Below, piece by piece: positions 7,548 to 25,308 of a stretch of 64,000 bases of DNA (position 1 is its first letter; every line of letters begins with the position of its first letter). Both the position numbers and the translations under genes were made by a program. The DNA comes from Myxococcota bacterium (GTDB taxonomy: Bacteria > Myxococcota > Kuafuiibacteriia > Kuafuiibacteriales > Kuafuiibacteriaceae): positions 4,098-68,097 of the forward strand of contig JBCBRU010000001.1 in NCBI GenBank assembly GCA_039819565.1, read 5' to 3'. The notes under the pieces are model-generated. The model saw only the letters and a program-made list of their open reading frames with translations, ran no database searches and was not told the origin of the DNA.

Positions 7548-7580
7548 CGGTTTCGGGTATCACATCGTCGGGCGAGGGCG

Positions 7581-8201: not shown

Positions 8202-8731
8202 CGACGGCCCCTCAGCGAACGACGCCGACCCCGAGGCGGGGCGGGAGGACGAGCCAGCAGGGCGAAGCGCGCGCGCGCCGCTCCGGCAAAAGCGACGGCG
8301 AGGGCGTCGCTCGCATCCTCTTGAGCGGCCTCAGGGAGACCGAGAAGCACCTTCACCATGGCTTGGACTTGCCCCTTGTCCGCACGTCCCTTTCCGGTCA
8401 CGGCCTTCTTAACCTCTGAAGGCGAGATCTCGACCAGGGGGAGCTCCCTCAGTCCGCACGCGAGGAGCGCGACCCCTCGGGCATGTCCAAGCACCAGGGC
8501 GCTCCGAGCGCTCTTGTGGTGGAAGATGGACTCGAGAAACACGGCGTCGGGCGCGTGCCGTTCGAGGAGCGCTTCGAGACCGAGATGAATGTCCCGCAGG
8601 CGGTCCGCGAGGGGGCGACGCTCGCCGACGGCAAGGACGCCACAGTCCACCATTTCGTAACGGGATCCCTCATGGGCGATCACGCCCCAGCCGGTGAAGC
8701 GCGAGCCAGGGTCTATTCCGAAGGCCAACAT
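8198..8731 (-). CDS. ruvC: crossover junction endodeoxyribonuclease RuvC
   Basis: MLAFGIDPGSRFTGWGVI (RNase-H-fold catalytic Asp), GKGRADKGQVQAMV, EDASDALAVA. 4-nt overlap with the ruvA start. Confidence 0.95.
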   Translation of the reverse strand: MLAFGIDPGSRFTGWGVIAHEGSRYEMVDCGVLAVGERRPLADRLRDIHLGLEALLERHAPDAVFLESIFHHKSARSALVLGHARGVALLACGLRELPLVEISPSEVKKAVTGKGRADKGQVQAMVKVLLGLPEAAQEDASDALAVAFAGAARARFALLARPPAPPRGRRRSLRGRR

Positions 8732-8786
8732 GCGGGCTCCGCGGAACCGTAGCGGAGTCCGGTCGCGCTGACGAGCGCTTCATCGA

Positions 8787-10907
8787 TCACATCGCTCCGA
8801 GCACATGGAGCAGGAAAGATTGCTCGAACGCCACTTCTTCCAGGGCCTCGAAGCGCCCGGCGGCGCCGCCGTGACCCGCTTCCATGTTCGTCTTGAGAAG
8901 AAGCAAGCGGTCGTCGGTCTTTCGAGCCCGGAGGCGCGCGACCCACTTGGCGGGTTCCCAGTACGTGACGCGCGGATCCGAGAGGCCGGCCAACACGAGC
9001 AGATGGGGATAAGGCCCCTCGCGGACGTTGTCGTAAGGAGAGTATCCCCGGATGTATTCGAAGGCCGAAGCATCGCGGATCGGATCGCCCCACTCGGGCC
9101 ACTCGGGCGGAGTCAAAGGGAGGGTCTCGTCCAGCATCGTATTCAAGACATCGACGAAGGGTACGTCGGCTACGATCGCCGAGAACAGCTCCGAGTGTTC
9201 GTTGGCCAAAACCCCCATCAACATACCGCCGGCGCTTCCTCCCATGGCGGCGATGCGAGAGGCATCGACAAGCCTACGGTCGCCAAGCGCTCGGGCCGCG
9301 GCGGCGAAATCGGAGAAGGTGTTTCGCTTCTTCTGAAGCTTTCCGTCTCGATACCAGCGGTAGCCGCGATCCATCCCCCCGCGTACGTGAGCGATCGCGA
9401 AGATAACTCCGCGATCTACGAGCGAGAGTCGGGTCAGCGAAAAGCCGGCGGGCATGGCGTGACCGTAGGCTCCGTAGCCGTAGAGAAGGCACGGGGCGCT
9501 CCCGTCGAGCGGGACGTCCGCGCGATGGAGGATGGACACCGGCACCTCCTCACCGTCGGAAGCCGAGATCATGAGTCGCTTGGCAACGTAACGGGCGGGG
9601 TCATGGCCGCTGGGGAGGATCTGCTCCTTTCGCAAAACCCGCTCCCCCGACGACATATCGTAGTCATAGGTCCGCTGGGGTGTAGTCATCGAGCTGTATA
9701 CGAATCGAAAGACCTGCGTATCGAACTCCCGCGCTCCCACGAGCCCGAGGCTGTAGACCTCCTCGGAGAAAGACACCTTGCGCTCGCGAGTGAGCTGGGC
9801 ATCGCTGAGATCGTAGATCACGAGTTGAGGGAGCCCGTCCACCCGTTCGATGACAACGAGGTGGTTTCGAAACAGGTGGTACCCAAGGCGGAGCCGCCCC
9901 GCCTGCGGGGGAAGCAGCTCACGCCAAGAGTTCCGAGCCTCATCGGCCCCTAACGCCGACAAAGGCATCGAGGCGAGCGTATAGTCCTCTGCCCCTCCCG
10001 CATTCGTCCGCATGATGAGGGACTCGCCGTGATGACTAACGTCATACTCTACCCCGACCGTACGGGTGGCCACCCGTACGGGGGCCGCACTTGGGCTCTC
10101 TGCATCCAGCAGCCAAACCTCCGAGGTGTCGTGGTCATGCGCATCGATAGTTACGAAGCGCTGACTCTCCGTGCGGGATAGGCCGACAAAGAACCCCGGA
10201 TCCTCTTCGAAATACAGCGTAGAGTCGTTCTCGGGTGGCTCACCGAGAACGTGCCGCTTTACGGTGCGCGGGCGATGTTCAGCGTCAAGCACGGTGTAGA
10301 TCACGGTCCGATCGTCGAGAAACTCGAAACTCCCGCTCGTCCCCTGAATGGAATCATCCAGCCATAACCCGGTCTCAACCTCTCGAAACCTCAAGGTCCA
10401 GAGCTCAGCGCCCGAAGTATCCTCGGCGATGGCTACGAGCCGATGATCCGGGGAGGGCTCGCAGGCACCTACCTGAAAGAAGGCTTTCCCTTTGGCCTCG
10501 GCATCCCCATCGAAGAGTACGGTTTCCTCTCCGCCTCCCCTCGGCCGCCGGCCGAAGATGGGGTGCTGGCCGCCAACCTCGTATCGCTGGTAGTAGCTCC
10601 ATGGCCCCTCGTCCTGAGGCACCGAGGCATCGTCCTCAACGATGCGTCCCCGGTACTCCTCAAAGAGCTCCTTGCGCAGATCGGCGAGGCCCTCGAGGCT
10701 GCGCGTGCAGTAGTCATTTTCGGCCTCAAGATAGGCGCGAATATCGGGCTCGAGCGCCGAGCCGTCCCGCATCGCCTCACGCCACCGTTGGGACCGGAGC
10801 CAAGCAAACTCATCGTTCCATCGATAGCCGTGAGCGGCCTGAGGGGCGGAGCGAGGCTCAGCCTGCGGGGGCGAAGGTAAGGCGTGGGGAGGGGATTCGT
10901 CGTTCAT
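8787..10907 (-). CDS. ptrB: S9A serine peptidase, oligopeptidase B / prolyl oligopeptidase family
   Basis: N-terminal beta-propeller region (YRWNDEFAWLRS...), C-terminal catalytic domain with nucleophile GGSAGGMLMG, then DVPFVDV and EAGHGG (His). Confidence 0.85.
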   Translation of the reverse strand: MNDESPPHALPSPPQAEPRSAPQAAHGYRWNDEFAWLRSQRWREAMRDGSALEPDIRAYLEAENDYCTRSLEGLADLRKELFEEYRGRIVEDDASVPQDEGPWSYYQRYEVGGQHPIFGRRPRGGGEETVLFDGDAEAKGKAFFQVGACEPSPDHRLVAIAEDTSGAELWTLRFREVETGLWLDDSIQGTSGSFEFLDDRTVIYTVLDAEHRPRTVKRHVLGEPPENDSTLYFEEDPGFFVGLSRTESQRFVTIDAHDHDTSEVWLLDAESPSAAPVRVATRTVGVEYDVSHHGESLIMRTNAGGAEDYTLASMPLSALGADEARNSWRELLPPQAGRLRLGYHLFRNHLVVIERVDGLPQLVIYDLSDAQLTRERKVSFSEEVYSLGLVGAREFDTQVFRFVYSSMTTPQRTYDYDMSSGERVLRKEQILPSGHDPARYVAKRLMISASDGEEVPVSILHRADVPLDGSAPCLLYGYGAYGHAMPAGFSLTRLSLVDRGVIFAIAHVRGGMDRGYRWYRDGKLQKKRNTFSDFAAAARALGDRRLVDASRIAAMGGSAGGMLMGVLANEHSELFSAIVADVPFVDVLNTMLDETLPLTPPEWPEWGDPIRDASAFEYIRGYSPYDNVREGPYPHLLVLAGLSDPRVTYWEPAKWVARLRARKTDDRLLLLKTNMEAGHGGAAGRFEALEEVAFEQSFLLHVLGAM

Positions 10908-10913
10908 CTGGGC

Positions 10914-12371
10914 TCACTCTTTCGAACAATCGACCGGAGGCGATGGATCCCCCGGAGTAGGTCGACACCACCTGAAGACCCCATCGGCGCCGCGCGCGAG
11001 CGACTCGTGGGACAGGCTGGGCGGAGCGCCTCCGGGATGATCCGCGCCTCGAAGAGTTCCGAGTACAACGCGATCCAACCGAACGTCTCCAGCCCAAAGC
11101 TCTATCGCGACGCCGGACTGCGCCGTGTCTCCCCGAGGCCGCACCACGAGCGCCTCGCCTGGAAACCAGGTGGTCCATGACCCGTCGTCTCCGAAAAACG
11201 CGCCAGGAGCATCAACCACCCGAAAAACGCTGGGCGTCCCATCGAGAACTCGAAGCTCGAGGCCAACTCGATCGGTATCCATCGCCGTCTCCCCTGCGTT
11301 AACGAGTTCAATCCACTCATCGGCGGCACTGACGGTGCCGGCCCCCGGGTAGCCGTCGAAGGGCACACCCGCCGGGATGCTGTCGCCCCAGTCTCTTCGT
11401 GGAGACGTCACCACCTCAGAGATCCGAGCAAAAACCGGCGTTGGAGTCTGCACGGAGAGTTCGGTTCGAGCCGTCTCTCCAGCCAGGTCTTCCGCGACGA
11501 TCTCGGCCGTCAGCGTCTCGTCCTCAGGAAGCGCCCCGTTCGATCGAAGCCATAGCCTAACCCCAGGCATATCCATGGACTCGAGGAGTCCGCGGTCCCC
11601 TTTCGATTGCCAAGCGCCCGAGACGCGAACCACCTCACTCGCCGTAACCTCGACCTCCAGCCGGCCAGGAAGAGCGCGGGCCTGTGCCGTCACCCCAGGA
11701 GGTACGCGATCCGCAACCGTCCCCGTACGAATAAGCACCAGGCTCTCCGTGGATGAGACTCGCGGCCCCACCAAACGAAGCCAACGTGGTGGGCACTCGG
11801 GGCTGCACACGAGCTTGGGTACGATCCGGAAGTGACCGGGGGTCTCGAGTTCCGGAGCCAGCTCCCACCGACCGCCCACATCATCCTCGAGGGCGTAGGT
11901 CTCGCCCGGTGCGGTCCCAGCAAGAACCACCCAATTCAAGTTCGCGGGGGCCGACTTTCCGGGTACGGGACGCCGGATCACAACCTCGCTTGGACGTTCA
12001 TCAGCCCTTCCGACCACCGTGAATGAGATCGAAGCCACGTCGATGGATGCGCCCTCCGAGTCTACGAGCGCACCGGTGAGGTCGACGAAGATCGTTTCTC
12101 CCCCCGGCCAGCGAGGCAGAGGGTAGAGCCGGAGACCCGATGAGAGCTCCTCCATCTCGAAAGACAAGTTGCCATTGAGTCCCTCTACGCGAGGGGCTCC
12201 CACCCAGCTCGCTTCCGCGCTCCAGTCGAGCGAAACTACGTCCGTCAGGTCCACGAGACCCTCTGGGTGCCTTTCGGGGACCAAAAGGTGGTCCTCACCG
12301 CGAGGAGCCTCGGGAGGGGCCCAGCACCCGGTGAAGATCAGCGCGAGGACTCGGCAAGCAACTGAGACCAC
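10914..12371 (-). CDS. lipoprotein with C-terminal lamin-tail (LTD) domain
   Basis: ORF 10914..13274 was trimmed because its first ~300 aa are R/G/S-rich and overlap better ORFs in other frames. GTG at 12371 gives VVSVACRVLALIFTGC (lipobox). C-terminal ISEVVTSP...SAADEWIELVNAGETAMDTDRVGLEL is LTD-like. Confidence 0.55.
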   Translation of the reverse strand: MVSVACRVLALIFTGCWAPPEAPRGEDHLLVPERHPEGLVDLTDVVSLDWSAEASWVGAPRVEGLNGNLSFEMEELSSGLRLYPLPRWPGGETIFVDLTGALVDSEGASIDVASISFTVVGRADERPSEVVIRRPVPGKSAPANLNWVVLAGTAPGETYALEDDVGGRWELAPELETPGHFRIVPKLVCSPECPPRWLRLVGPRVSSTESLVLIRTGTVADRVPPGVTAQARALPGRLEVEVTASEVVRVSGAWQSKGDRGLLESMDMPGVRLWLRSNGALPEDETLTAEIVAEDLAGETARTELSVQTPTPVFARISEVVTSPRRDWGDSIPAGVPFDGYPGAGTVSAADEWIELVNAGETAMDTDRVGLELRVLDGTPSVFRVVDAPGAFFGDDGSWTTWFPGEALVVRPRGDTAQSGVAIELWAGDVRLDRVVLGTLRGADHPGGAPPSLSHESLARGADGVFRWCRPTPGDPSPPVDCSKE

Positions 12372-12973
12372 CTTCCGCCGGTGGCGGCGTCCAGAGCGCC
12401 GTCGAGGCGCAGGAGCTGGACAAGGCCGTCTGCTGCGGGCTCCTTCGGAGCCTCCAGCTCGACCTCGAGGCGTTCGAAATACAGCTCCGTCACCTTTAGG
12501 ACCGCCGCCCGCACCACAGCAGATCGGCGTAGACGCTCGCGATGAGCCCGCAGCTCGTCGGACGAGAAGATGAGCTGACCGAGCTGAAACCGGAGGGACA
12601 CGTCGAGCCCATAGCCTCGACCTTCCGTCCAAGAGGGATCTCGCTCGGCTTGGGCTCGGATGTCGAGGTCGGAGTCGGTGCCGACGCGAACGTCGAGACG
12701 CGGTAGCCAGCCGCGGCTTCGGGCCCGACCTCCCCAGCTCCGTACCTCGGCATCGCTCGGCAACCTCAGAGAGGCTTCCGCCGCGTCCTGCACCGAAACC
12801 AAGCTGGGCCATCCGCTCCCGGCGACACGAGCCCTTAGTTCGCGCATGCGAGCCGCGTCTGCGGCCTGAGGAGATTCCCCCCGGGATGGTCCTTTCGACG
12901 CCGGAGGCGTCCCGAACGCTGTAGAGCCCAAGGCCGTCAGCTGGGCGGTGAATAGCCACGCTATCGCCCGCAT
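12338..12973 (-). CDS. hypothetical secreted protein
   Basis: Signal-like N-terminus MRAIAWLFTAQLTALGSTAFG and non-degenerate composition. Overlaps its neighbours by 13 and 34 nt in an operon-like arrangement. Confidence 0.5.
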   Translation of the reverse strand: MRAIAWLFTAQLTALGSTAFGTPPASKGPSRGESPQAADAARMRELRARVAGSGWPSLVSVQDAAEASLRLPSDAEVRSWGGRARSRGWLPRLDVRVGTDSDLDIRAQAERDPSWTEGRGYGLDVSLRFQLGQLIFSSDELRAHRERLRRSAVVRAAVLKVTELYFERLEVELEAPKEPAADGLVQLLRLDGALDAATGGRWSQLLAESSR

Positions 12974-13308
12974 CCCAGCACTCGCGCCCGCTCCCGATGC
13001 GCGAGCTCCAGCAGCGAGCCCTGCAAGCCACCTTTCGGGAGCTTCTCGAGAGGCTCCACGACGCAGACCGGGAGGCGAGGTGGGGATCGAAACGCCTCAA
13101 AGAGCGCGTCCCAGCCCACGACCACAGCGGCGCCGAATGCGACCTCCTCACTTCCTCGGGCGCTTTGGGACCGCCAGCGGAAGCCACTCCATATCCGAAC
13201 CTGCAACGGTTCGCTGGCCGCGGCCGCGGGCGCTCCGAGACCTGCAGGAAGACCTGCAGAGAGAGCAAATCCAATGAGTCTTAGGGCCAGGGTGCTTTTC
13301 CCAAACAC
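12961..13308 (-). CDS. hypothetical small secreted protein
   Basis: Signal peptide MFGKSTLALRLIGFALSAGLPAGLGAPAAAA. First ORF of an apparent three-gene minus-strand operon. Confidence 0.4.
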   Translation of the reverse strand: MFGKSTLALRLIGFALSAGLPAGLGAPAAAASEPLQVRIWSGFRWRSQSARGSEEVAFGAAVVVGWDALFEAFRSPPRLPVCVVEPLEKLPKGGLQGSLLELAHRERARVLGCGR

Positions 13309-13411: not shown

Positions 13412-14260
13412 CTACCCGGCGGAACGGATCTGCACCAAGCCCTCGTTCATTCGCCCGCTTCGAAAGCCCTCGAGATCGAGGGCGACGAAGCGAAAACCGA
13501 TCTCGCGCCCGGCCGCGACGACGGCCTTTCGAGCTTCGAACGCCCGCGTGAGCTCGGCCTCGCCCACCTCCAACCGCACCATGTCCTCGTTCTCGCGAAC
13601 CAACCGCGCCCGCACGTCGAAGAACCCCATGTCGCGGAGGACGTCCTCCATCCGTTCGATGCGTGAGAGACGATCCGCGGTCACCTCCATCCCGTACGGG
13701 ACACGGCTCGAAAGGCACGCCAGCTGAGGTTTGTTCCACGTTGCGAGCCCAGCTCGTCGGGAGAGCGCACGGATCTCAGCCTTGGATAGGTGGGCCTCCG
13801 CCAACGGGTGTCGAACCCCCCGCTGAGCGGCCGCCGCGTGGCCGGGGCGATGATCCGAAAGATCATCGGCGTTGAAACCATCGACAACGACCGTTCCCGG
13901 GCTCGCCTCGGCGAGAAGGCCTGCGGCATCGAACAGCGTGTCCTTGCAGTAAAAGCAGCGAGACGGAGCATTCGCTCGATACTCCGGGCGATCGAGTTCG
14001 CGGGTGTCGACGATGCGATGGGCGATGCCAATGTCGCGGGCAAGGTGCTTCGCCGCTTCGAGCTCGCGGCCGGCCAACGAGGCGGAACGAGCCGTCAGGG
14101 CCTCCGCCCGCTCTCCGAGCACTCGATGGGCTGCCCAAGCCAGGTAGGTCGAGTCGACCCCTCCCGAAAAGGCGACCAAGACTTTCTCGACCTCTCCGAG
14201 ACGCGCAAAGACCGTGCGCTCCTTTGCGTCGAGGTCCGAATCCTCTGCGGCGACGTCCAT
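13412..14260 (-). CDS. larE: PP-loop ATP pyrophosphatase, LarE-like sulfur transferase (TIGR00268-type)
   Basis: PP-loop VLVAFSGGVDSTYLA; conserved Cys region APSRCFYCKDTLF; size about 280 aa, typical of LarE. Confidence 0.7.
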   Translation of the reverse strand: MDVAAEDSDLDAKERTVFARLGEVEKVLVAFSGGVDSTYLAWAAHRVLGERAEALTARSASLAGRELEAAKHLARDIGIAHRIVDTRELDRPEYRANAPSRCFYCKDTLFDAAGLLAEASPGTVVVDGFNADDLSDHRPGHAAAAQRGVRHPLAEAHLSKAEIRALSRRAGLATWNKPQLACLSSRVPYGMEVTADRLSRIERMEDVLRDMGFFDVRARLVRENEDMVRLEVGEAELTRAFEARKAVVAAGREIGFRFVALDLEGFRSGRMNEGLVQIRSAG

Positions 14261-14320: not shown

Positions 14321-15016
14321 TCAACCGGCCCCGAGGGCATGCGCGACGCGGAGAACCCGAACGACAGCCAGACTCCCCGGGTCGAGGCCGACGCGTCCCG
14401 CGCGGAAGAGAAGCTCGTCGGCCGTGACCTGGTCGAGATCGAGGTCCTCGAACCCGTCGAGGCCACGCATCCCGAGAGCCGCCAACAGCGGCCGATGGGT
14501 GCCCCTCGCACCGTCCTTCACGAGCGCGTCAGCCTCGGCTCGTCCATCACCGACGGTGAGCCAGATGCGGTCCGGAGAAAGAGAGCCGTTCGGATCGATC
14601 CACAGGACCCGCGCCGCGAGCCCCACCCGAACCTCCGGGGGAAAACCCATGCATCCGGACGCCTCGAGTTCGAGAAGCCGGTCCAGTCGCACCCGATCCG
14701 GCGTCCTCCGAGGGGCCTCACTCGAGAGACGGGCGCGGAGGCCTACTTCTCCCAGAGTCAGCCGCACCGGCCCCGTAGCGGCCACAACCGGCGCATCGAT
14801 ACGGCGTCCCTGCACCACCGTCCCCCGAGGAGAGGCCCCGAGGTCGACGATCACCATTCGCCCCCGGCGAATCTCGAGGCGGGCATGGCGCAGAGCGACG
14901 GTGGGGTGGGGAAGAACGAGGTCCGCGGATCGCGAGCGACCGATGAGCGCGGAGGCCCCGACACTGCGCTCACCGAGCCAGCGCCCCCGCAGCTCAACCT
15001 CGACCCGCATCCCCAT
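14321..15016 (-). CDS. FHA-domain protein
   Basis: N-terminal FHA signature LIGRSRSADLVLPHPTVALRHARLEIRRGRMVIVDLGASPRGTVVQGRRI. ATG at 15016 (or 15010) is preferred over the ORF start at 15082. Confidence 0.75.
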   Translation of the reverse strand: MGMRVEVELRGRWLGERSVGASALIGRSRSADLVLPHPTVALRHARLEIRRGRMVIVDLGASPRGTVVQGRRIDAPVVAATGPVRLTLGEVGLRARLSSEAPRRTPDRVRLDRLLELEASGCMGFPPEVRVGLAARVLWIDPNGSLSPDRIWLTVGDGRAEADALVKDGARGTHRPLLAALGMRGLDGFEDLDLDQVTADELLFRAGRVGLDPGSLAVVRVLRVAHALGAG

Positions 15017-15046
15017 GACCGCAAGGTACGTCAGCAGTGCTGACGG

Positions 15047-15877
15047 ATGTACCTTTCCCGGGGGTGCTCCCGGAGGGAACATCCCCGGGTGCTCCTCGTC
15101 ACCTGGGCGTCTCTAGCGATCGGCTTTGAGGCAGGATCTGCCGATCTTGGGTCTCGACTGAGGCTTCCCGTGGCGGCCGCGGTCCGCCCCGCCACCGTCC
15201 CCGACGATCATTTTGCCGTCCGATTCTCGGGGACCCTGCTGACGCGCCCCGGTCAGTGGAGCGCGCCTCTCGTTGCGGGCGCTGGATACGGTCTGACCGA
15301 CAACTTCGAGATCGGGACCGCGCTTCTCCGCTTCACGCTGGCCGAGGCCGAAAGTGGGGTTCCTGGCGCCGACGGCCTCACCGCCCCTACCATCTACGGT
15401 GCCGCTCGACTCCCCCTAGGGCCCGTGGAGCTCGGCGGGCGGGCAGAGCTGGAGCTTCCGCTCGAGGGCTTTCGAGCGCTCTCCGCGGGCACGTTCGTGC
15501 GGTTCCACTTCGGCTCGGTGGCTCGAGTGGACCTGAGCGCCGAAGCGACCCTGTTTTACGACGGCGTTGAGGTGAGTTGGCCCTCCGTCGGAGATTTAGG
15601 GGCGACCTTCAATCTCCTCGAGCGCTGGGCCTTGACCGGGGGCCTCAGCTTTCGCAGCGATGACCTAGGCGCCGACCTGCGCGCCGTCCCTCGGGTGGGG
15701 ACCCTCGTAACGCTAGGGCAGCCAAGCTCGCCTCCTCTTCTCGACCTCGAGGTCGCTCTTCTGTTCCCGGCCGCGGCCTTGACCGGTCCGGATTTCGAGG
15801 AGGGTTGGGGCGGCTCCCTCATCCTCACCCTCTTCTTCGACGACCCCGCCGATGGCGTGGGCCCGGACCCTTTTTAG
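15047..15877 (+). CDS. hypothetical beta-strand-rich protein (possible outer-membrane protein); start uncertain
   Basis: Long ORF with non-degenerate composition, alternating hydrophobic pattern and C-terminal Phe. No clear signal peptide at the listed start. Confidence 0.4.
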   Translation: MYLSRGCSRREHPRVLLVTWASLAIGFEAGSADLGSRLRLPVAAAVRPATVPDDHFAVRFSGTLLTRPGQWSAPLVAGAGYGLTDNFEIGTALLRFTLAEAESGVPGADGLTAPTIYGAARLPLGPVELGGRAELELPLEGFRALSAGTFVRFHFGSVARVDLSAEATLFYDGVEVSWPSVGDLGATFNLLERWALTGGLSFRSDDLGADLRAVPRVGTLVTLGQPSSPPLLDLEVALLFPAAALTGPDFEEGWGGSLILTLFFDDPADGVGPDPF

Positions 15878-15880
15878 GGA

Positions 15881-17089
15881 CTAAGCAGCCTGATACGCGA
15901 CGGGGGCGATCTCGAGGGTGCTCCGGATCTCGGAAATGGCAGGGCTGGCCGGAAGCGCAATATGGGTTGCACCCTGATTCTGAGCCATGGCCGCGGCGAG
16001 CCAGGGGTCCGGGTGGTCTCGAAGCGGTCGGACCGGCAGCCCGCTGAAACCGATCTCTTGGCTAGGGCCCCCGACCAAGAGGCCGTCCACGCCCTCGAGG
16101 TCGAGGTCTCGCAGATCGATATCGAGCCAGGACGGCACCGCGAGAATTTTTTCAGCGCCCATGGATATCCACCCGGCGCGAAGATCCCAGACGTCAGCCT
16201 CACCGGATGAGTAGGCGAAGAGAGGTCCCCCGGGTGTTCCTCGGCCCCCCAGCTGCTCCGCCACCACCATGAGCCCGATGGGCTCGCCGGTGCTGCTGAT
16301 GAGCTCGATGGCCTGACCCGCGGAGCCCACAGGAAGCGAGGCTTGCAGCGTCATCGGTCTTCTCCAGGGCACCCCCTGGGACAGACGCCCCAGCGCTTCG
16401 ACGATACGCGCCTCGTGGGGCCGCTGAAAACCGGTGAGGGGGGAGAGCACCCCGAGCTCAAAGTCTCGAACCCGCTCCGACTGCTCTCGATTTAGGCGGA
16501 GCTCACGGCCCTCGGCGAAGCTCCTCAGAGCCTCCCGTTCTCGGGGAGCCAGTCTCCGGTGGGCCAACCGTCCCCCTACGGGGGCGATTGGGGAGGGACT
16601 CGTGCCTCCACGAAACTCCAGATCCGGAAAACTCTCGGGAGCGGGCCGCGATTCATCAAAAGCTCTGCGATCCTGACTCCATCGATACGCGGCCACCTCG
16701 CCGCAGCGTCCTCGGCGAACCTCGAAGACGAGGTGCACCAGGTCGGGCATCAGCGGGTAGCCGTTGGGGGCGATGGCGGCGCGGTCCACGGCGGAGAGAT
16801 ACGCGCCGGCGTCGGGATGGCTGTGGTACAGCACCCGCTCCACGCGTCCCGCTTCATCAGCTTTTTCGAGCACTTCGAGGTGCTCTCGATCGTCGAAGGC
16901 AAAGCGGTCAGGTTCCGCAGCGACGTTGGCCAGGGCGACCGGATGGTCAGCCACGTCCTCAGTCCGAGAGCCAAACACGAGCCCACAAGCTTCCCTGGGG
17001 TAGCGTTCTTCGGCGTCCGCGCGCATGGCGGCCAGAGCGCGCGCCGAGATATCCACCCCAAAGGCCGTCCAGCCCGCCCCGCTGGTCAT
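15881..17089 (-). CDS. JAMM/MPN+ metalloprotease fused to a degenerate ATP-sulfurylase-like module
   Basis: JAMM motifs are complete: Glu in PREACGLVFG and HSHPDAGAYLSAVD (HxHx7Sx2D). Residues ~185-280 (ELRLNREQSERVRDFELGVLSPLTGFQRPH...GVPWRRPMTLQA) resemble the PUA-like N-domain of ATP sulfurylase. The start ATG overlaps the stop of the upstream giant gene (ATGA). Confidence 0.8.
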   Translation of the reverse strand: MTSGAGWTAFGVDISARALAAMRADAEERYPREACGLVFGSRTEDVADHPVALANVAAEPDRFAFDDREHLEVLEKADEAGRVERVLYHSHPDAGAYLSAVDRAAIAPNGYPLMPDLVHLVFEVRRGRCGEVAAYRWSQDRRAFDESRPAPESFPDLEFRGGTSPSPIAPVGGRLAHRRLAPREREALRSFAEGRELRLNREQSERVRDFELGVLSPLTGFQRPHEARIVEALGRLSQGVPWRRPMTLQASLPVGSAGQAIELISSTGEPIGLMVVAEQLGGRGTPGGPLFAYSSGEADVWDLRAGWISMGAEKILAVPSWLDIDLRDLDLEGVDGLLVGGPSQEIGFSGLPVRPLRDHPDPWLAAAMAQNQGATHIALPASPAISEIRSTLEIAPVAYQAA

Positions 17090-20000
17090 GAGCGCCCCCC
17101 CAGGCGACGGAGACGCTCGCTCTTGTCGTCGAGCTCTCGTTCGAGGGCGGAGCGACGTCGTTCCGCTTCGTCGATGACCCCTTCCAGCTCCGCCACCCGC
17201 CGCTCCATACGCACCTGCGCTTGCTCGGAGGTCTGGAGCAAACGACGGAGACGCTGTCGCTCGCTTCCCACCGCCGCCAGCTCCCGTTCGAGCCTCTTCT
17301 TCTCATCGCTCGAGCCGCCCCCCCCATCCGTCGACGGGGGCCGACCTCCCGAAACCGCGAGTTCCGCCTGCAGGTCCGCCACCCGACCCTCGGAGAGCTC
17401 CAGGGCTGCTCGCAGTTTTTCCTGAGCCCCGAGCGCCGAGCGGGCCGCTTCGCGATGACGATCCACGTCCGCCCGAGTAGCTTCGAGCTCTCGCCGGGCC
17501 TGCTCGAGATGTCCACGAGCTTGCTCGAGCGCCTCGGAGTCGGCGGACGCCGGGGCGCCGCCCTCCGTCTCGACGAGGCGGCGACTCACTGTGTGCATCT
17601 CTTTACGGGCCTCGGCGAGTTCCTGCTCAACGCTCTTGATCCGCTCCTGACCTTCTTCCGCCCGGCGTTCCGCCTCGGTAGCGCGGGCGTACACCTCGCG
17701 AACCTCGAGCCGAGCCTCATCCCGTTCGAGCTCGAGTTTGCTGTAGCTTTCACGGAGTCCCTCAAGGTCGCCGCGAAGCGCTTGGAGTTCGGCTTCTCGA
17801 TGTCCAGCCGCGGACGGCTCCCGGCCCCCTCGTGCGGTCTCGAGCTCCGCTTCCAGGGCGTCGATGCGATCTCTCGCGCGCTTGACGGCCGCTTCGGTGC
17901 TTCCCAGTCCCATCGCGAAGCGATCGCGCTCGGCCGTAACTCCCGCGATGCGATCTTTGAGCTGCGTCATCTCCTTCTCCCGTTCGGAGACCTCTTGCTG
18001 CGCCTCGACGAGCTCTGACTCGGCCGCACCGCGGCGCTCCCTCTCGAGATCCACGCGACGCTCGGTGGCGGCCAGCGCTCCCGTCTTGTCCGCGGCCTCC
18101 GCTCTCGCGGTCTCGACCTCCGAAGCCACTTCCGAGAAGCGCTGCTCGAGATCGGCGATGCGAGCCCGCGCACCCTCTAGTTGCGCACGGGCAGCGGCAT
18201 CACCTCGAGCATGGGCAGCTTCTGCCTCTTGCGTGGCCTTGCGGCGAGACTCCGCCGCGCGACGACGCGCTTCGGCGAGATCGTTGGAGAGCTGGAGGGC
18301 TCGCGCCCTCTCCTCTCGGAGCGCTTCCTCCAGCCGGCGCTGCGTCTCCTCCGACGCCGTCGCCGCCTCGTTCAGGCGGACATGAAGGTCCGCAACTTCG
18401 CTCTCCAAGTCCTCGCGGCCCTCGCTGGGCCGAGGGACCTCGGCCAATCGGAGCTCGTCGTCCCTCGCCAGGAGCTCGAGTCGAGCTTCCCGTACCGCCT
18501 CTTCCTGGGCGGCAAGATCCGCCATGAGATCCAGTTCGTGGGTCTTGAGCGCGTCGATCTCCCGAGCCGACGCCTGCTCCTGGTCACGACTTCGCTGGAG
18601 CTCACCTTCCAGTTCTTCCACCGCGGCGCGAAGCTGATCCTGCTGGGCACGCTCATCCTCGACGAGACCCTCGAGTTCATCGACCTGGGCTCGCCACGCC
18701 GTATCTCGCTCCTTGGCTTCGATCAGCTCTGTTTCCAGCGTCTGAAGAGCCTGAGCGCTCGAGCCGCGCTCGGCCTCGGCCTCTCGATGATCTGCGCGGA
18801 GTCGGTCCAACTCGGCCTGCAGCCCGTCCCGGGCCGCTTCTTCCTCCTGGCGTCGAGCCTCCTCGGCATCCAGCTGCTGCCTCAGCTTTTCCACCAGCGA
18901 CCGACCGGCCGAAAGTCGATCCTCGAGGGCACGGATCGCCTCGTGGCGCTCCATATCTCGGAGCCGCAGTCGGTCCTCGGCCTGCCGAAAGCGGGCCAGG
19001 GCATGGCGCTGCGCCTCCACTCGGGCTTCGAGCTCCCGACGTTCCCGCTCCGCCATGCCGCTTCGGTCCTCGGCGGAGGCGGCTCGAAGCTCGGCCATGG
19101 CGAGCGCTTCCCAGGAGCGCTCAACCTCTTCGCGGGCGCGCACCCGCGGAAGCGCCGCGGAAGCGATCTCTCGCTGGTGGTCGCGCTCTTCCAGCTCCGC
19201 GCGAAGTGCTACGCACTCGAGGCGAGCCATCCGTGCCTCTGACTCGAGTTCGTCGAGTCGCTCCCTAAGGGCCCGCAGAGACGCAAGGGACTCGTCTCGC
19301 TCGCGCTCCGCCGCCCCGAGGCTCTCGAGCTGTGCTCTCGCGGCTGCGAGCGCGCGCGAGGCCGGCACCTGACGGGCCTCCGCGATCTCCAGATCCTGGT
19401 GAAGGTCATCGACGCGACCACGCGACCTCTCGAGCTCATACTGCAAGCCCTGTTGTCGCTGCTCGGAAGACTCGAGCGCATCTTCCAGCGCACCGTGACT
19501 GTCGATGGTGTCGACGAGAAGGGCCTCCAGGGCGCGATGACGCTCATCGCGCTCGTCGACCTCGGTCCGAAGCCGGCTCACCTCCTGGCGAGCCCGCGCG
19601 TCGCGTTCCGCGAAGCGGCTCGAGTGAGCTTCGGCTTCAGCCTTCTCGCCGAGCGCCCGACCGAGCGCGTCCTCGAGCTGGGCCCGGGTAAGTTCGAGCT
19701 GATCGAGACGCCTCTCGAGTGTCGACCTTTCGCTCCGCTCGACGTTCCAGGCCCTCGCCCAGCGCACCCATTCGGTCTCCGAGGCGTCGGCGCGGTGCTC
19801 ACGGGCGGAGCGCAGATCGACCTCGAGCCGCTCGACGTGGGTATGAGCTTCATCCCGCTCGGCGGCAAGGCTGGAGGAGGCGGTGGCGAGCGTGTCGCGC
19901 TCCTCGCGAAGGACCGCGACCCGTTCTCGGTGGCGCTCGAGCTCGTCCGCCATATGCCGAGCCGTCAACTCGAGAGCCCGTCGTTCGCCTCCCAGAGCAA

Positions 20001-22422
20001 GCTGGGCCTGGGTCAGCTTAGCGACATCCTTCTCACGATCTTGAAGGGCTCGGGACGTGCGCTCGAGCCGAGCGGATGACTCTCCCAGCTCGCTCGTGCG
20101 TTGATCGAGAACCAGCTGGAGTCGATGGGCTTCATCGACAGCCCGACTTGCCTGTACGCGCAGGCTGTCAATCTCCGCGTCGGCGCGCTGGCGCTCTTGC
20201 ACTCCGTGTTCGAAGCTCGTGCGCAACTGCTCGAGCTCCGCCACGAGCTCGGCTCGGTCGCCCTCGACCGAATGTAGAGCCCCCGCGAAGCGCTGGATCT
20301 CGGCATCCTGAACGCTCGCACGCCGAGCGAGCTCCATCTCTAGCGAGCCGATCCGATCCTGAGCCGCGCGAAGCTCCTCGCGGGCGCGCCTGAGGTCCCC
20401 TTCCGCGTCCTCGTAGCGCGCGCGCAACTCCGGGTCCTCCCGAGGTCGGCTCTCGCTGCTCACCAGCTGCGCGCGCAACTCCTCCAGCCCCTTCTCGAGC
20501 TCTCCGCGCCGGTCTTCGAGGCTGCGCTCTCGCGCTTGGGCCTCGTGAAGCGCAGCCTCGAGGGTCGCTCGATCGCGCGCATGCTCCGCCTGGCTCTGGG
20601 CGCCCTGCCGTTCCAGATCCGCACGGGCCTGGGTGAGCCTCTGGACCTCTTCCTCGGTGCCGCCCTTGACCTCTTCGAGGTCGCGCTCGAGCTCCGACAC
20701 TCGGCCTTCGAGGGCCGCTCGAATCCGACGCCCTTGCGCCGCTTGAGACTCGGACGAGCTCAGCCGTTCACGAGCCTCGTCAAGCTCGCCTCGGAGTCGA
20801 GCAAGGTCGGATTCGAGCTCCGCGACGGTTTCGTCGGCGGCCCCCGGGCCTGGGCCCACGGAGCGCAACTTATCCTGCAGCTCTCCACGGGCGAGCTCGA
20901 GCATCTGAAGTCGAGTGGTCTTTTCGGCTACTTCGAGCTCGAGCTCCCGCAACTTCACCGTCCGACGGGCCTCAGCCTCGCGATCGCGATCTTCGCTGCG
21001 TCTCTCCCTTTCGCTGAGCGCGGTCTCGAGATTGCGCACCTGTGCTCGCAACCCCTCAGTCGTTTGCGCATGACGGGCCGCTTGCGCATCGAGACGTAGG
21101 GTACGCTCGGCAAGCTCCGCCTCCAGAGCGCGAACCTTGTCCTCGAGGGTCACGCCGGACCTCGGGTCAGTGCCTCGACCTCGAAGGCGTGCGACCTCTT
21201 GCTGAAGCTCTCGAATGGCGCTCTGACGAGCATCAAGAAGCGCCGTCAATCGCTCCGTGGCAGCATCGGACGACTCTGGAGAGGGCTCGGCCGGCCCCTT
21301 CAGTCGTGCCTCCGCGGCCGCTCGGGCCTCTCGCTCCGAGGCGAGGGTAGCCTCGATCTCGCGGCGCGCCGTACGCTCGTCGGCGAGCTGCGATTCGACC
21401 TCGGAACGCGCTCGCAGCTCCGACTCCAGCCGCTCCTCGACCTCTCGCGAGGGCTCGATGCGACCCTCGAGCGTCTCCACCTCCACCGGCTCCGGGGTGG
21501 GAAGCGGGGCCGCCTCCACCACCGCCGGAGAGAGAAGGCGGGTCTCGGGAGGGTTCGCCGGTTCGAGATGGGACTCGACGGCGGCTCGGAGCCGCGGCAG
21601 GCGAGCCCCAAGCATCCGCAAGCTCGCCTCCTGCGCGCCGAGCGTGGCCCGAGCATCTCGGAGGGCGTCGGCCAGCCGCTTGAGCGTGGACGCGTCCGCC
21701 GTGCGTCGACCCTCCTGAAACCGCTCTACCTCCGTCCAGGGCACTTCGACGAGCTGGGGTCGATCCAGCAGACGGGCGGGCCCGACCACCACCAAGACCG
21801 AGCTCGGCGAAGCCTCCGCGTCGATTCCGTTGGGTCTGAGACCCTGCGAACCTGCGGGGCGAATCGTGAATCCCACGAATGGGGTCTGATGGTAGAAGGC
21901 CGCGCTCGGGAATCGCGCCCGAATGGCTCGAGTGACCCGCTCGGCGTCGGTTTCCGAGCCGAGGCGGCCTTCGAGGCGGGCGAGAAGACCAGGTCCCGAA
22001 GCTCGGTATCCGAGGACGAAGAGGCCGCCCGCCGCGACGACCCGGCGCGCCTCGCGCAGGAAGGGGTCGGCTCCGAGGGCGGCGACCGACGGCCCGAGAT
22101 CGGGGACGAGCAAAACGTCAAAGGCGTCGTCGGGAAAGTCGAGGCGCCCCGGGGGCGCCGTCACCCGCTGGACGGCGTCGGAATGGGGCCCCCCTTGGGC
22201 CTCGGTTTGCACCGAGACCACCGAGCGCGCGCCGGCCTCGACCAAGCGAACCGCGCTGGAGGGGTCTGGAGCCCCGACTTCCAGGACCCTGCGCCCCTCC
22301 ACCAAAGGAAGAACCAGGGCGTAGCTGGCCCAGGCTTCGGCGCCGTCGAGCCTCGACGAAGCCCCCGGACTCGAGGCCCGGCTATCGCTCGATCGACTGG
22401 AAACCATCGACTTCGCTCCCAA
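17086..22422 (-). CDS. giant coiled-coil protein (1778 aa) with N-terminal class-I methyltransferase-like domain
   Basis: N-terminal ~230 aa have a Rossmann-MTase-like pattern (RRVLEVGAPDPSSAVRLVEAGARSVVSV, DDAFDVLLVPDL, GGLFVLGY). The remainder is a continuous E/R/A/L-rich heptad-type sequence. The long plus-strand ORFs here are antisense shadows. Confidence 0.85.
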   Translation of the reverse strand: MGAKSMVSSRSSDSRASSPGASSRLDGAEAWASYALVLPLVEGRRVLEVGAPDPSSAVRLVEAGARSVVSVQTEAQGGPHSDAVQRVTAPPGRLDFPDDAFDVLLVPDLGPSVAALGADPFLREARRVVAAGGLFVLGYRASGPGLLARLEGRLGSETDAERVTRAIRARFPSAAFYHQTPFVGFTIRPAGSQGLRPNGIDAEASPSSVLVVVGPARLLDRPQLVEVPWTEVERFQEGRRTADASTLKRLADALRDARATLGAQEASLRMLGARLPRLRAAVESHLEPANPPETRLLSPAVVEAAPLPTPEPVEVETLEGRIEPSREVEERLESELRARSEVESQLADERTARREIEATLASEREARAAAEARLKGPAEPSPESSDAATERLTALLDARQSAIRELQQEVARLRGRGTDPRSGVTLEDKVRALEAELAERTLRLDAQAARHAQTTEGLRAQVRNLETALSERERRSEDRDREAEARRTVKLRELELEVAEKTTRLQMLELARGELQDKLRSVGPGPGAADETVAELESDLARLRGELDEARERLSSSESQAAQGRRIRAALEGRVSELERDLEEVKGGTEEEVQRLTQARADLERQGAQSQAEHARDRATLEAALHEAQARERSLEDRRGELEKGLEELRAQLVSSESRPREDPELRARYEDAEGDLRRAREELRAAQDRIGSLEMELARRASVQDAEIQRFAGALHSVEGDRAELVAELEQLRTSFEHGVQERQRADAEIDSLRVQASRAVDEAHRLQLVLDQRTSELGESSARLERTSRALQDREKDVAKLTQAQLALGGERRALELTARHMADELERHRERVAVLREERDTLATASSSLAAERDEAHTHVERLEVDLRSAREHRADASETEWVRWARAWNVERSERSTLERRLDQLELTRAQLEDALGRALGEKAEAEAHSSRFAERDARARQEVSRLRTEVDERDERHRALEALLVDTIDSHGALEDALESSEQRQQGLQYELERSRGRVDDLHQDLEIAEARQVPASRALAAARAQLESLGAAERERDESLASLRALRERLDELESEARMARLECVALRAELEERDHQREIASAALPRVRAREEVERSWEALAMAELRAASAEDRSGMAERERRELEARVEAQRHALARFRQAEDRLRLRDMERHEAIRALEDRLSAGRSLVEKLRQQLDAEEARRQEEEAARDGLQAELDRLRADHREAEAERGSSAQALQTLETELIEAKERDTAWRAQVDELEGLVEDERAQQDQLRAAVEELEGELQRSRDQEQASAREIDALKTHELDLMADLAAQEEAVREARLELLARDDELRLAEVPRPSEGREDLESEVADLHVRLNEAATASEETQRRLEEALREERARALQLSNDLAEARRRAAESRRKATQEAEAAHARGDAAARAQLEGARARIADLEQRFSEVASEVETARAEAADKTGALAATERRVDLERERRGAAESELVEAQQEVSEREKEMTQLKDRIAGVTAERDRFAMGLGSTEAAVKRARDRIDALEAELETARGGREPSAAGHREAELQALRGDLEGLRESYSKLELERDEARLEVREVYARATEAERRAEEGQERIKSVEQELAEARKEMHTVSRRLVETEGGAPASADSEALEQARGHLEQARRELEATRADVDRHREAARSALGAQEKLRAALELSEGRVADLQAELAVSGGRPPSTDGGGGSSDEKKRLERELAAVGSERQRLRRLLQTSEQAQVRMERRVAELEGVIDEAERRRSALERELDDKSERLRRLGGRS

Positions 22423-22510: not shown

Positions 22511-23803
22511 TCAGTTCGCCGTGGTTTCGAGTCCGAGTTTCGCGGCGTAGCGGCGCGCCAAACGGGTTTGACGGCTGTCTAGGGGCTGCTCCCGTCCCCG
22601 CACGAACACGCGTTCCGCCCAGCTCCCGGGCTCGAAGGGATCTCCGGTCCAAACGACGAGGTTGGCCCGTTTGCCCCGTTCGAGACTCCCCATTCGGTCA
22701 TCAAAGCCGAAGACTCGGGCCGGGGTCAGCGTGATGGCCTCGAGCGCGAGCTCTGCGGGAAAGCCAGCTCGCACCGCATTTCCGGCCGCGAAGCGCAGGT
22801 TTCCTGCGTTGTGGTTGGAGCGGGCGGCAAGAACGACAGGAACCCCGGCCCGAGCCAGCAGGGCTCCATTGTCCGCCCTTGCGTTTCGCCTTTCGAAGCT
22901 CGAAGGAAGATTTGCGAAAGGATCGACCACGACCGGAATCTTCTCCTCGGCCAAAAAGTCGGCCACCATCCAACCCTCGGAGGCCCCCAGGAGGACGAGA
23001 TCGAGGCGGTACTCGTTCGCGAGTTGAACGACCGCGCGGACATCCGCAGCTCGATGGACCTCGATGACGGCCGGCATCCTTCCTTGCAAGACCGGTACGG
23101 CGGCCGCGAGATCGAGCCTCCCGGCGGACATCGAATATAGCCCTCTTCGTCGATACAGCGCCTCACTTGTCCGGTAGGTACGTACATCGTCGAGAAACTC
23201 CTCGAAGCGATGCATCGCGGACAGGCGGCTGCCGCCGACGGCGGCCGCGCCCTTTTCGCCGAGACGCACACAAAGGGCCACCAAACCCTCAAACGAGGTC
23301 GGCGCCGCCGGATCCCGGCCGTCGAGAAGGTCGAAGAAACCGGCCCGGCCGCTCACGAGCCCCCCTTCCGGGGCGCTGATCACCGAAGTCACGCCGTGAC
23401 GTCGCGCGACGCCCACGAGCGTCGAGTCGAGGTCGAAGGCCCGGTCCGCCCGCACCGCAGCGCGAATGGGATGGTCGACCTCAGGCCGAGCATCATTACT
23501 TTGGGGCTCGAGCCCAACTTCCAGGAGTCCCAGCTGGGTATCCGCGGCAATGAGCCCCGGCGTGATGATTCGGCCCGACACATCGATCGTGCGCGCATCC
23601 CCCGGAACCGCGACGTCCACTCCCAGCTCCGCAATCCGCCCGTCCCGAATGAGGACGGTGCCCTTCTCGATGGGAGGCTGAGAAACAGGCACCACACGAG
23701 CGCCTACGAGGGCGACATCACCTGGAGCGGCCAGAGCCGGGTTCGAGGTCGACAGGAGGAGCCCGGTGATCGCCACAGCGGCCTTGGTCTTCGAAACTTT
23801 CAC
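22511..23803 (-). CDS. secreted amidohydrolase-superfamily protein (HxH metal motif not conserved)
   Basis: Signal peptide MKVSKTKAAVAITGLLLSTSNPALA. Amidohydrolase-like VVPVSQPPIEKGTVLIRDGRIAELG...GRIITPGLIAADTQLG and C-terminal GSLERGKRANLVVW. Confidence 0.8.
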   Translation of the reverse strand: MKVSKTKAAVAITGLLLSTSNPALAAPGDVALVGARVVPVSQPPIEKGTVLIRDGRIAELGVDVAVPGDARTIDVSGRIITPGLIAADTQLGLLEVGLEPQSNDARPEVDHPIRAAVRADRAFDLDSTLVGVARRHGVTSVISAPEGGLVSGRAGFFDLLDGRDPAAPTSFEGLVALCVRLGEKGAAAVGGSRLSAMHRFEEFLDDVRTYRTSEALYRRRGLYSMSAGRLDLAAAVPVLQGRMPAVIEVHRAADVRAVVQLANEYRLDLVLLGASEGWMVADFLAEEKIPVVVDPFANLPSSFERRNARADNGALLARAGVPVVLAARSNHNAGNLRFAAGNAVRAGFPAELALEAITLTPARVFGFDDRMGSLERGKRANLVVWTGDPFEPGSWAERVFVRGREQPLDSRQTRLARRYAAKLGLETTAN

Positions 23804-25308
23804 TGGAGGACCTCCACCGAAGTACCGACGTCGAAGTCGCTCTTCGTTTCGCGGGGCTTGGAGCGGTCATGAACCACCACCCCGTCGACCATGACCACGT
23901 CCGCTCGGGCGTAGATCGATAGAGGGAGACGGTCCCAGATAACGATGTCCGCCATCTTGCCCTCCTCGAGGGTACCCGTTCGGTCATCGATACCCAGAGC
24001 CACCGCCGGATTACGGGTCATCCAGGTGATCGCCTGATCCTCAGTGACGTTTAGCCCGAGACGACGACCTGCATGCAGCGCTTTCGCCGCGTCCTGATTG
24101 AGACGCTGAACGCCGATAGGACTGTCGGAGTGAATGATGGGTTGCCCGCCGGCAACTTGAATCAGGGCGGCGTTCTCCTCTACTGCGTCGTAAGCCTCGA
24201 GCTTGAAGCCCCACCAGTCCGACCAGATAGATGCCGAAACCCCTCGCGCCGCGAGAACATCCGCTATCTTGTAAGCTTCGGTTGCGTGATGAAAAGAGGC
24301 CACGGTGTATCCGAGCTCATCAGCCAGGGCCAGCATGAGAAGCATCTCGTCTGCCCTATAGCAGTGAATATGAACCCTAATCTCCCCCGCCATGACCGCG
24401 GCGAGAGTCTCAGCCCCAAGATCCCGCGGCGGGGCGACGGGCTCATCGCCCGGGCCATCGGCCGCGGGGTCGGCCTTGGCCCTTTCGAGCCTCTGAGCCC
24501 AGGCCACCCGTTTCTGTTCATACCGGCGGACCTTGTCGGCGTAGGCCTTAGCCTGCAGGAAAGCTTGCCGAAGCTTGTAGGCACTGCCCATCCTGGACAT
24601 CGGTTGCCGGCCTTTCGAGCCGTACACTCGCTTCGGATTCTCTCCGCAGGCCATCTTCAGGCCAAAAGGGGCGCCCGGAAAGCGCATCGCCCGGGCCTCT
24701 CGCCGGGGACGCAGCTTTAGGACCGTGGACCGTCCACCGATGACATTCCCGCTTCCCGGGAGGATCTGGACGGTGGTCACTCCACCCGCAATCGCGTCGT
24801 CCAGAGCAGGGTCCTGCGGCCAAAATGCGTGCTCGGCGAACACGTAGGCCGTCGTGGGATCTGTCATCTCGTTGCCGTCCGCGTGAGCAGCCACGCCCGG
24901 CGAGGCGTACACCCCCATGTGAGAGTGGGTATCGATGAGCCCCGGCGTGACGAAACGCCCCTGTGCATCGACGACCCGCGCCCCCTCGGGCACCTCGACC
25001 TCTGCCCGAGCCCCTACCGCCGCGATCAAGCCGTCGCGGAGCACAAGCGTTCCGTCGGGGATGCGTTTGCCCGTCCCCAGCAAAAGGGTCCCGCCCACCA
25101 CTGCCGTGACCCCGGGGGCGACCGGCGCGGCCCCCAGGACGGCCTTCTCCTCCACTTGCGGCGCGGGGTGACCGATGGCCTCCGGGATCATCCGCGGCCC
25201 TTCCTTCGCCGTCGCCCGACCCGTCGCGCAGCTAAACGAAGACGCAGCCGCAATACAGACTGCGAGCTGGACAACTCCTCGACTCCGGCGAGCCACGGGA
25301 AGCTTCAT
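23800..25308 (-). CDS. amidohydrolase-superfamily lipoprotein (imidazolonepropionase/prolidase-like)
   Basis: Lipobox AAASSFSC; FVTPGLIDTHSHMG (HxH); C-terminal GTLEEGKMADIVIWD. 4-nt overlap with the downstream paralog. Confidence 0.88.
   Translation of the reverse strand: MKLPVARRSRGVVQLAVCIAAASSFSCATGRATAKEGPRMIPEAIGHPAPQVEEKAVLGAAPVAPGVTAVVGGTLLLGTGKRIPDGTLVLRDGLIAAVGARAEVEVPEGARVVDAQGRFVTPGLIDTHSHMGVYASPGVAAHADGNEMTDPTTAYVFAEHAFWPQDPALDDAIAGGVTTVQILPGSGNVIGGRSTVLKLRPRREARAMRFPGAPFGLKMACGENPKRVYGSKGRQPMSRMGSAYKLRQAFLQAKAYADKVRRYEQKRVAWAQRLERAKADPAADGPGDEPVAPPRDLGAETLAAVMAGEIRVHIHCYRADEMLLMLALADELGYTVASFHHATEAYKIADVLAARGVSASIWSDWWGFKLEAYDAVEENAALIQVAGGQPIIHSDSPIGVQRLNQDAAKALHAGRRLGLNVTEDQAITWMTRNPAVALGIDDRTGTLEEGKMADIVIWDRLPLSIYARADVVMVDGVVVHDRSKPRETKSDFDVGTSVEVLQ

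Follow-up and report, generated by a model that had tools for sequence, protein, structure and literature searches.

A Myxococcota-specific family of head–rod–tail proteins with a methyltransferase-derived head and a long, segmented coiled-coil rod

Results

The window analysed here is a stretch of 64,000 nucleotides (nt) of a Myxococcota genome (GenBank assembly GCA_039819565.1, contig JBCBRU010000001.1, positions 4,098 to 68,097), and its subject is a giant minus-strand gene whose product consists of a globular head, a coiled-coil rod and a conserved tail. On the minus strand, an open frame of 1778 codons runs across 17086–22422 from a TTG. An ATG at 22407 lies five codons inside this TTG at 22422, with GGGAG 8 nt upstream of it, and a start there gives 1773 amino acids (aa), the same length as the identical database entry P0003. 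Because the ATG is backed by a Shine–Dalgarno (SD) sequence and P0003 has this length, we took the gene as 17086..22407 (minus strand), and ATG 22407 is the likely start codon on the sequence evidence. An earlier reading of the same DNA, hereafter the original prediction, had given 1778 aa, the length that the TTG would mean; its gap of 88 nt to the upstream amidohydrolase gene holds from the TTG and becomes 103 nt from the ATG. The protein is predicted to be cytoplasmic, and no signal peptide or hydrophobic segment was found in its sequence. A promoter and terminator scan gave no signal above the shuffled background.

The head (residues ~20–285; 21553..22350, minus strand) comprises a class-I methyltransferase-like Rossmann fold and the first long helix, as shown by a profile comparison with the Protein Data Bank (PDB), an AF2 model, Foldseek and the ortholog alignment. 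The Pfam model Methyltransf_11 scored 15.6 bits against the head (E 0.025), below its gathering cutoff of 21.2; ortholog P0007 and distant homologs, unlike the head in the window, pass the Pfam thresholds. A profile built from an alignment of 13 orthologous heads gathered from related genomes matched class-I S-adenosylmethionine (SAM) methyltransferases in the PDB, with 8ys9 as the best match (E 1.7e-7) and 1xxl at E 1.9e-5. The AF2 model, with a mean predicted local distance difference test score (pLDDT) of 69.8 and core blocks at 80–96, showed strands that alternate with helices, after which a long helix sets in at residue 224. When this model was compared with the PDB by Foldseek, the top 50 matches were almost all methyltransferases and spermidine synthase, at E values of ~1e-7 to 1e-6; one of them was SpnF, a cyclase with a methyltransferase fold. 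The N-terminal methyltransferase-like head of the original prediction was thus borne out by the model and by the profile search proposed there for this domain, which we ran with the ortholog profile.

The degenerate glycine motif reported in the original prediction is present, and its degeneracy is common to the orthogroup. In the window, motif I is VLEVGAPDPSS (22255..22287, minus strand), against an orthogroup consensus of VLEVGTxDxRS. The pattern (D/E)xGxGxG was not found in this motif, which gives E-V-G-A-P-D-P in the window and E-V-G-T-x-D-x in the orthogroup. Glycines 2 and 3 of the loop are lost in 13 of the 13 aligned orthologs, which show VLEVG-T/A-x-D-x-R/S-S throughout. In contrast, many of the more distant family members keep the canonical LE[IV]GxGxG (LEIGCGDG or LEVGSGLG) together with V-G-[IL]-D. 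The ribose-binding acid at the end of strand 2 occurs as VVGTxPD in most orthologs, shifted by two positions toward the C-terminus relative to the canonical V-G-[IL]-D; it is absent from several orthologs, and the window reads VVSVQTE there. The head motifs FDVxLVxDL and RRVLxPDG are conserved across the orthologs. We conclude that the head has a methyltransferase fold with a cofactor loop that has degenerated in the window's clade, yet in a conserved manner. Its sequence indicates descent from a class-I SAM methyltransferase, with loop glycines 2 and 3 replaced by a conserved G-T-x-D-x-R-S in the orthogroup. Because these two glycines are lost, the head is probably a pseudo-enzyme that serves binding or dimerisation.

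A Pro/Glu-rich linker (residues ~283–320; 21448..21561, minus strand), poorly conserved and with many gaps among the orthologs, leads from the head to the rod (residues ~321–1703; 17299..21447, minus strand), a segmented heptad coiled coil that varies in length and sequence among the orthologs. Beyond residue ~320, 64% of all residues are E, R, A, L or Q. The hydrophobic periodicity of the rod shows a sharp peak at 3.52 residues, at 42 times the mean power, with a harmonic at 2.33. Phase tracking resolved ~16 heptad segments of constant phase, each of 31–217 residues, which cover 1301 of the 1473 positions after residue 300; about ten Pro breaks lie between segments (~372–377, 415, 519–521, 655–659, 1015, 1087, 1325–1327, 1531, 1619 and 1690–1691). 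This register check, suggested in the original prediction, confirmed the heptad periodicity and placed the phase breaks at Pro. Of the ~1500 aa of uninterrupted coiled coil described there, the long heptad coil stands, at ~1450 aa, but it is broken into segments at the Pro sites. No further Pfam domain beyond the head was matched in the protein, in agreement with the earlier statement that no recognisable globular domain follows the head. Given the rise of 0.15 nm per residue of coiled coils, the rod would be ~200 nm long if it forms a continuous dimer.

A full-length alignment of 15 orthologs revealed three conserved islands, namely the head, a mid-rod motif and the last 70 residues; outside these islands the identity is 10–20% with many gaps, and the total length of the orthologs ranges from 1340 to 2200 aa. 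The mid-rod motif (residues 804–863; 19819..19998, minus strand) comprises 60 aa beginning with ALGGERRALELTARHMADELERHRERVAVLREERDTLATASSSLAAERDEA and is gapless, with ~45% identity in the 15 orthologs. Its position varies from 200 to 580 aa past the head and from 530 to 1460 aa ahead of the tail. The tail (17089..17298, minus strand) comprises 70 aa ending in DKSERLRRLGGRS, with 40–54% identity, and carries the family motif [DE][KR][TSN]ER[LI]RRL[SAG]G followed by 0–5 residues. This motif is present in most orthologs, and kindred endings (DKTERIARLT...) occur even in distant homologs. The mid-rod motif and the tail are probably docking or binding sites, as their conservation suggests. The tail is a coiled coil and not the beta-grasp fold of a ubiquitin-like carrier. 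Its Gly-Gly occurs in the window only and is absent from 16 other orthologs, the tails of which read LRRLAG, LRRLSG, LRRLSD, LRRLTL or LRRIND or have no motif, with or without a ThiS gene. A conserved Gly-Gly tail as a cleavage site for the neighbouring JAMM protein was rejected, since the Gly-Gly is not conserved.

Orthologs were detected by six-frame searches of genomes from the same Myxococcota family (n = 19) and from the wider phylum. The head was found in 16 of the 19 same-family genomes, in open frames of 1350–2200 aa, some of them split by assembly problems. In the G002 ortholog (L015 5130–5229, G002:C43), a run of 100 N and a frame change make the apparent 612 aa an assembly artefact; the giant orthologs of G004 and G007 are likewise split between frames. 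Phylum-wide head matches were weaker, in frames of ~430–2100 aa. The lineage that bears the orthologs consists of uncultured Myxococcota metagenome-assembled genomes (MAGs). When 1.84 billion representatives were scanned in full with HMMER, 32 cluster representatives reached E<=1e-30 and 820 reached E<=1e-10, with the head N-terminal in almost all; among the matches listed, two thirds are at least 600 aa long, with an E/R/A/L/Q fraction of ~0.65 beyond residue 300. A word-index search with residues 1–300 gave one relative only, which reflects the limited sensitivity of that search and not rarity. No informative source name was found for the homologs, only the automated label 'chromosome segregation ATPase', and none of the papers searched described a methyltransferase head on a rod. 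These proteins constitute a conserved, uncharacterised, Myxococcota-specific family of head–rod–tail proteins. In another Myxococcota family, head–rod homologs of ~1000 aa have the canonical methyltransferase motif (L042, L046, L047 and L041); homologs of this type are flanked in several genomes by two TPR proteins and PurF, a conserved setting that differs from that of the window and gives no functional hint.

Downstream of the giant gene lies a JAMM fusion gene (15881..17089, minus strand; 402 aa), which encodes a Prok-JAB domain (residues 16–117), a PUA_2 domain (residues 168–278) and a region of weak ATP-sulfurylase similarity. The catalytic residues of the JAMM domain are in place (E in PREACG, and HSH-x7-S-x2-D). 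The giant stop, within CTG GGG GGG CGC TCA TGA CC, overlaps the JAMM start in an ATGA at 17086..17089 (minus strand), as the original prediction had described; Gly codons reading GGGGGG lie just upstream and may act as an SD-like element. The JAMM start is backed by an alignment with the G002 ortholog (MTSGAGWTAFGVD versus MEEQDWAVFGVE). The tail Gly codons (17089–17106) read GGGGGG in the window and GGGAGG in G002 (L015), 6–13 nt 5' of the JAMM ATG. These codons may double as the SD sequence of the JAMM gene, which would constrain the tail sequence. Judging from the 4-nt overlap, the giant and JAMM genes are predicted to be co-transcribed in the window's genus, and they are probably translationally coupled there.

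The original prediction had raised the question of whether relatives keep this junction. Direct abutment is confined to the window's genus, and tight coupling is limited to G000 (ATGA) and G002 (TGA-c-ATG, with GGGAGG within the tail codons). In L001 and G001, the two genes are separated by 50–80 nt, and the JAB gene has no fusion. The G001 JAB gene (L014:9806–10705) has no PUA_2/ATP-sulfurylase module and carries an unrelated C-terminal extension of ~150 aa; the L001 gene encodes the JAB domain alone, of ~150 aa.

Two amidohydrolase genes (22511..25308, minus strand) lie directly upstream of the giant gene and adjoin it in nearly all orthologous loci. At the downstream end of the conserved block are genes for an FHA-domain protein (14321..15082, minus strand) and a PP-loop ATPase (13412..14260, minus strand). 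The order of the block in the family is amidohydrolase A, amidohydrolase B, giant, variable segment, JAMM, FHA and PP-loop ATPase. Between JAMM and FHA, the opposite strand of the window (15047–15877, plus strand) carries a gene of 276 aa without a Pfam match, which overlaps the 5' end of the FHA gene by 36 nt and occurs only in genus-level relatives of the window (43% identity in L001, 38% in G001). The expectation in the original prediction that orthologs of the giant gene have a JAMM neighbour in other genomes held within the family, where JAMM lies downstream of the giant gene on the same strand in at least ten related genomes, but not outside it: no gene for JAMM, ThiF, an amidohydrolase or a PP-loop protein lies within 10 kb of the phylum-level homologs. 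Synteny runs on past the PP-loop gene in 5–8 related genomes (window 6516–8779 and 10914–13280), so the syntenic region is larger than the block, and adjacency within the family therefore lends weak support to a functional link. In G017, a weak JAB match (9679–9894) and a PP-loop ATPase match (10009–10809) share one stop-to-stop frame (L023:8944–10830, G017:C4). This frame may represent a JAB–PP-loop fusion, a hint that JAMM and the LarE-like PP-loop enzyme act together.

In five relatives, 1.5–3.5 kb lie between the giant and JAMM genes and hold up to four sulfur-carrier genes. The interval contains a PALP enzyme, a ThiF–TusA E1 enzyme, a ThiS-family carrier of 91 aa and a CysM-like PALP enzyme in G003 and G007; a PALP enzyme, a ThiS-family carrier and a CysM-like PALP enzyme, with no ThiF–TusA match, in G005 and G009; ThiF–TusA only in G012 (genus g5); an unrelated gene of 390 aa in genus g7 and G004; and no gene in the window's genus. 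At the carrier-gene loci (L016:8608–13525 in G003, L018:8756–13416 in G007, and L017 and L019 on the reverse strand), the JAMM–PUA_2–ATP-sulfurylase-like fusion follows. The CysO-like ThiS carriers (91 aa) end in PAIAGG, PAIAGGA or PAIAGGR. A search of the window's own assembly detected no CysO-like carrier and only a fragment of ThiF. The full JAMM–PUA_2 fusion occurs in six genera; therefore, parsimony favors an ancestral complete module followed by repeated losses.

Discussion

We consider it reasonably probable that the giant protein is a cytoplasmic head–rod–tail scaffold with a pseudo-enzyme head, and that its gene came to abut JAMM through local loss of carrier genes. The most likely role of the protein would be that of a structural scaffold, tether or spacer. 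The sequence and length of the rod drift freely among relatives, whereas the mid-rod motif and the tail are retained, probably as docking sites. The anatomy predicted from the sequence is in keeping with a scaffold or filament: the protein would be cytoplasmic, and its rod, which differs in length among orthologs, bears a head, a mid-rod motif and a tail that are all conserved. The overlap of the giant and JAMM genes probably arose by loss of the PALP, ThiF–TusA, CysO-like ThiS and CysM-like genes that part them in related genera. The ancestral substrate of JAMM would then be a sulfur-carrier protein and not the rod, because the sulfur-carrier genes sit between the giant and JAMM genes in five relatives. 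The original prediction had tied the function of the giant protein to JAMM as a dedicated pair. These intervening genes, the genus-specific abutment and the distant homologs without JAMM speak against such a pair.

Several points weigh against this explanation. The residues that took the place of the loop glycines are strictly conserved and might yet bind SAM or some other ligand. Across the family, the giant gene always lies inside the same block from the amidohydrolases to the PP-loop ATPase, and a functional tie to the block is possible. The window comes from a MAG that is 95% complete and split into 939 contigs, which leaves it unproven that a ThiS carrier is absent. The polarity of loss versus gain is based on parsimony from the distribution of the JAMM–PUA_2 fusion and not on a reconciled tree.

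The rod may instead be a working part of the whole block, with its two amidohydrolases, sulfur-carrier/JAMM module, FHA protein and PP-loop ATPase, for example as a platform that organizes enzymes. The gene order is kept in ~15 genomes at head identities of just 35–46% and with differing upstream flanks, the genes are tightly spaced on one strand, and the possible fusion in G017 ties the downstream genes together. However, general synteny, which extends several genes past the PP-loop gene, may explain this order; the genes in the middle of the block have been lost freely, or the unrelated gene of ~390 aa has taken their place, and none of these neighbors accompanies the head–rod homologs outside the family. 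We consider such a platform unlikely. Alternatively, the head may have kept its SAM-dependent methyltransferase activity, and the rod would be a spacer or localization device that sets the distance or site of the enzyme. The intact fold, the conserved FDVxLVxDL and RRVLxPDG motifs, and the distant members with GxGxG and V-G-[IL]-D in canonical form, whose scores exceed the Pfam thresholds, are consistent with activity. The loss of both loop glycines in all 13 orthogroup sequences, the strand-2 acid that is shifted by two positions or missing, and the sub-cutoff Pfam score of the window head argue against it, and we regard an active enzyme as distinctly improbable.

The remaining alternatives concern JAMM and the SMC proteins. 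In a dedicated pair, JAMM would trim the ubiquitin-like LRRLGG-RS tail or otherwise act on the rod. The ATGA overlap is real, the JAMM catalytic residues are present, the window tail reads LRRLGG followed by two residues, and the cognate carrier is apparently missing from the window genome. However, the Gly-Gly is unique to the window irrespective of a ThiS gene in relatives, distant homologs without JAMM carry the tail motif too, the Gly codons coincide with the SD-like G-run for the JAMM start, and most relatives do not have JAMM and the rod gene side by side; a dedicated pair is thus very unlikely. A narrower proposal, that an orphaned JAMM was re-targeted in the window's genus to the ubiquitin-like C-terminus of the rod (LRRLGG|RS) and there trims or regulates this giant cytoskeletal protein, seems to us more doubtful still. 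If true, a structural filament in bacteria would be under a control in the style of a deubiquitinase. The least credible alternative is an SMC/Rad50-like chromosome-organizing or defence ATPase, which we regard as almost certainly wrong. Sub-threshold matches to the SMC, Rad50, LmuB and JetC models were found, and two distant homologs are labelled 'chromosome segregation ATPase' in IMG. However, all of these matches lie on coiled-coil segments, the NCBIfam SMC match covers model positions 664–946 only (90 bits versus cutoffs of 567–729), Pfam gives no SMC_N or ABC head domain, no Walker A/B head halves were found at the two ends of the protein, no hinge was found, and the conserved mid-rod motif is off the rod midpoint. 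An SMC-like hairpin was rejected on the unequal distances of this motif from head and tail. Anti-phage defence was also rejected, since PADLOC gave LmuB/JetC coiled-coil noise only.

This analysis delineates a large unstudied myxobacterial family of hundreds of clusters, in which a rod of 100–300 nm would carry a methyltransferase fold. In one clade, an enzyme head would have become a likely pseudo-enzyme, with the mid-rod and tail motifs kept. The motility and polarity of myxobacteria depend on elaborate scaffolds in the cytoplasm; therefore, these giant proteins are candidates for new cytoskeletal elements. This study also illustrates how comparative synteny can correct an attractive but misleading inference from a gene pair, as JAMM belongs to a decaying sulfur-carrier module.

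Several known systems can be compared with the locus. A JAMM peptidase encoded beside a carrier exposes the C-terminal Gly-Gly of that carrier in pathways such as CysO/CysM/Mec+ and QbsCDE. The loci of the relatives resemble CysO–CysM–Mec+ of M. tuberculosis and QbsCDE in that JAMM lies beside a ThiF-type E1 enzyme, a 91-aa ThiS protein ending in Gly-Gly and a CysM-like PALP enzyme. This comparison concerns the neighboring JAMM gene and not the rod; the locus in the window differs in the fusion of JAMM to a PUA_2/ATP-sulfurylase-like module and in the absence of the carrier, E1 and PALP genes. SMC, Rad50 and MukB share with the giant protein a long coiled coil, and its automated annotations point to them, but the giant protein has no ATPase head halves, no hinge and no antiparallel symmetry. 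The class-I SAM methyltransferases (Methyltransf_11/25; PDB 8ys9, 1xxl and 3bkw) are related to it through a homologous head, by profile and fold; the giant protein differs in its degenerate glycine-rich loop, its sub-cutoff Pfam score and the ~1450 aa of coiled coil after the head.

A further parallel is offered by the coiled-coil-rich cytoskeletal and scaffold proteins of bacteria, which include crescentin of Caulobacter, Scy and FilP of Streptomyces, and AglZ and FrzS of Myxococcus. As in these proteins, heptad coil makes up most of the giant protein; further likenesses are the predicted cytoplasmic location, the very long coil, a small terminal globular module and a poorly conserved rod. 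In contrast, no sequence homology to them is detectable, apart from a weak, sub-threshold Rod_CreS match in one distant family member only. The head of the giant protein is methyltransferase-derived and not receiver-like or intermediate-filament-like. Long coiled-coil scaffolds are thus already known, whereas the head–rod–tail family with a methyltransferase-derived head is uncharacterised.

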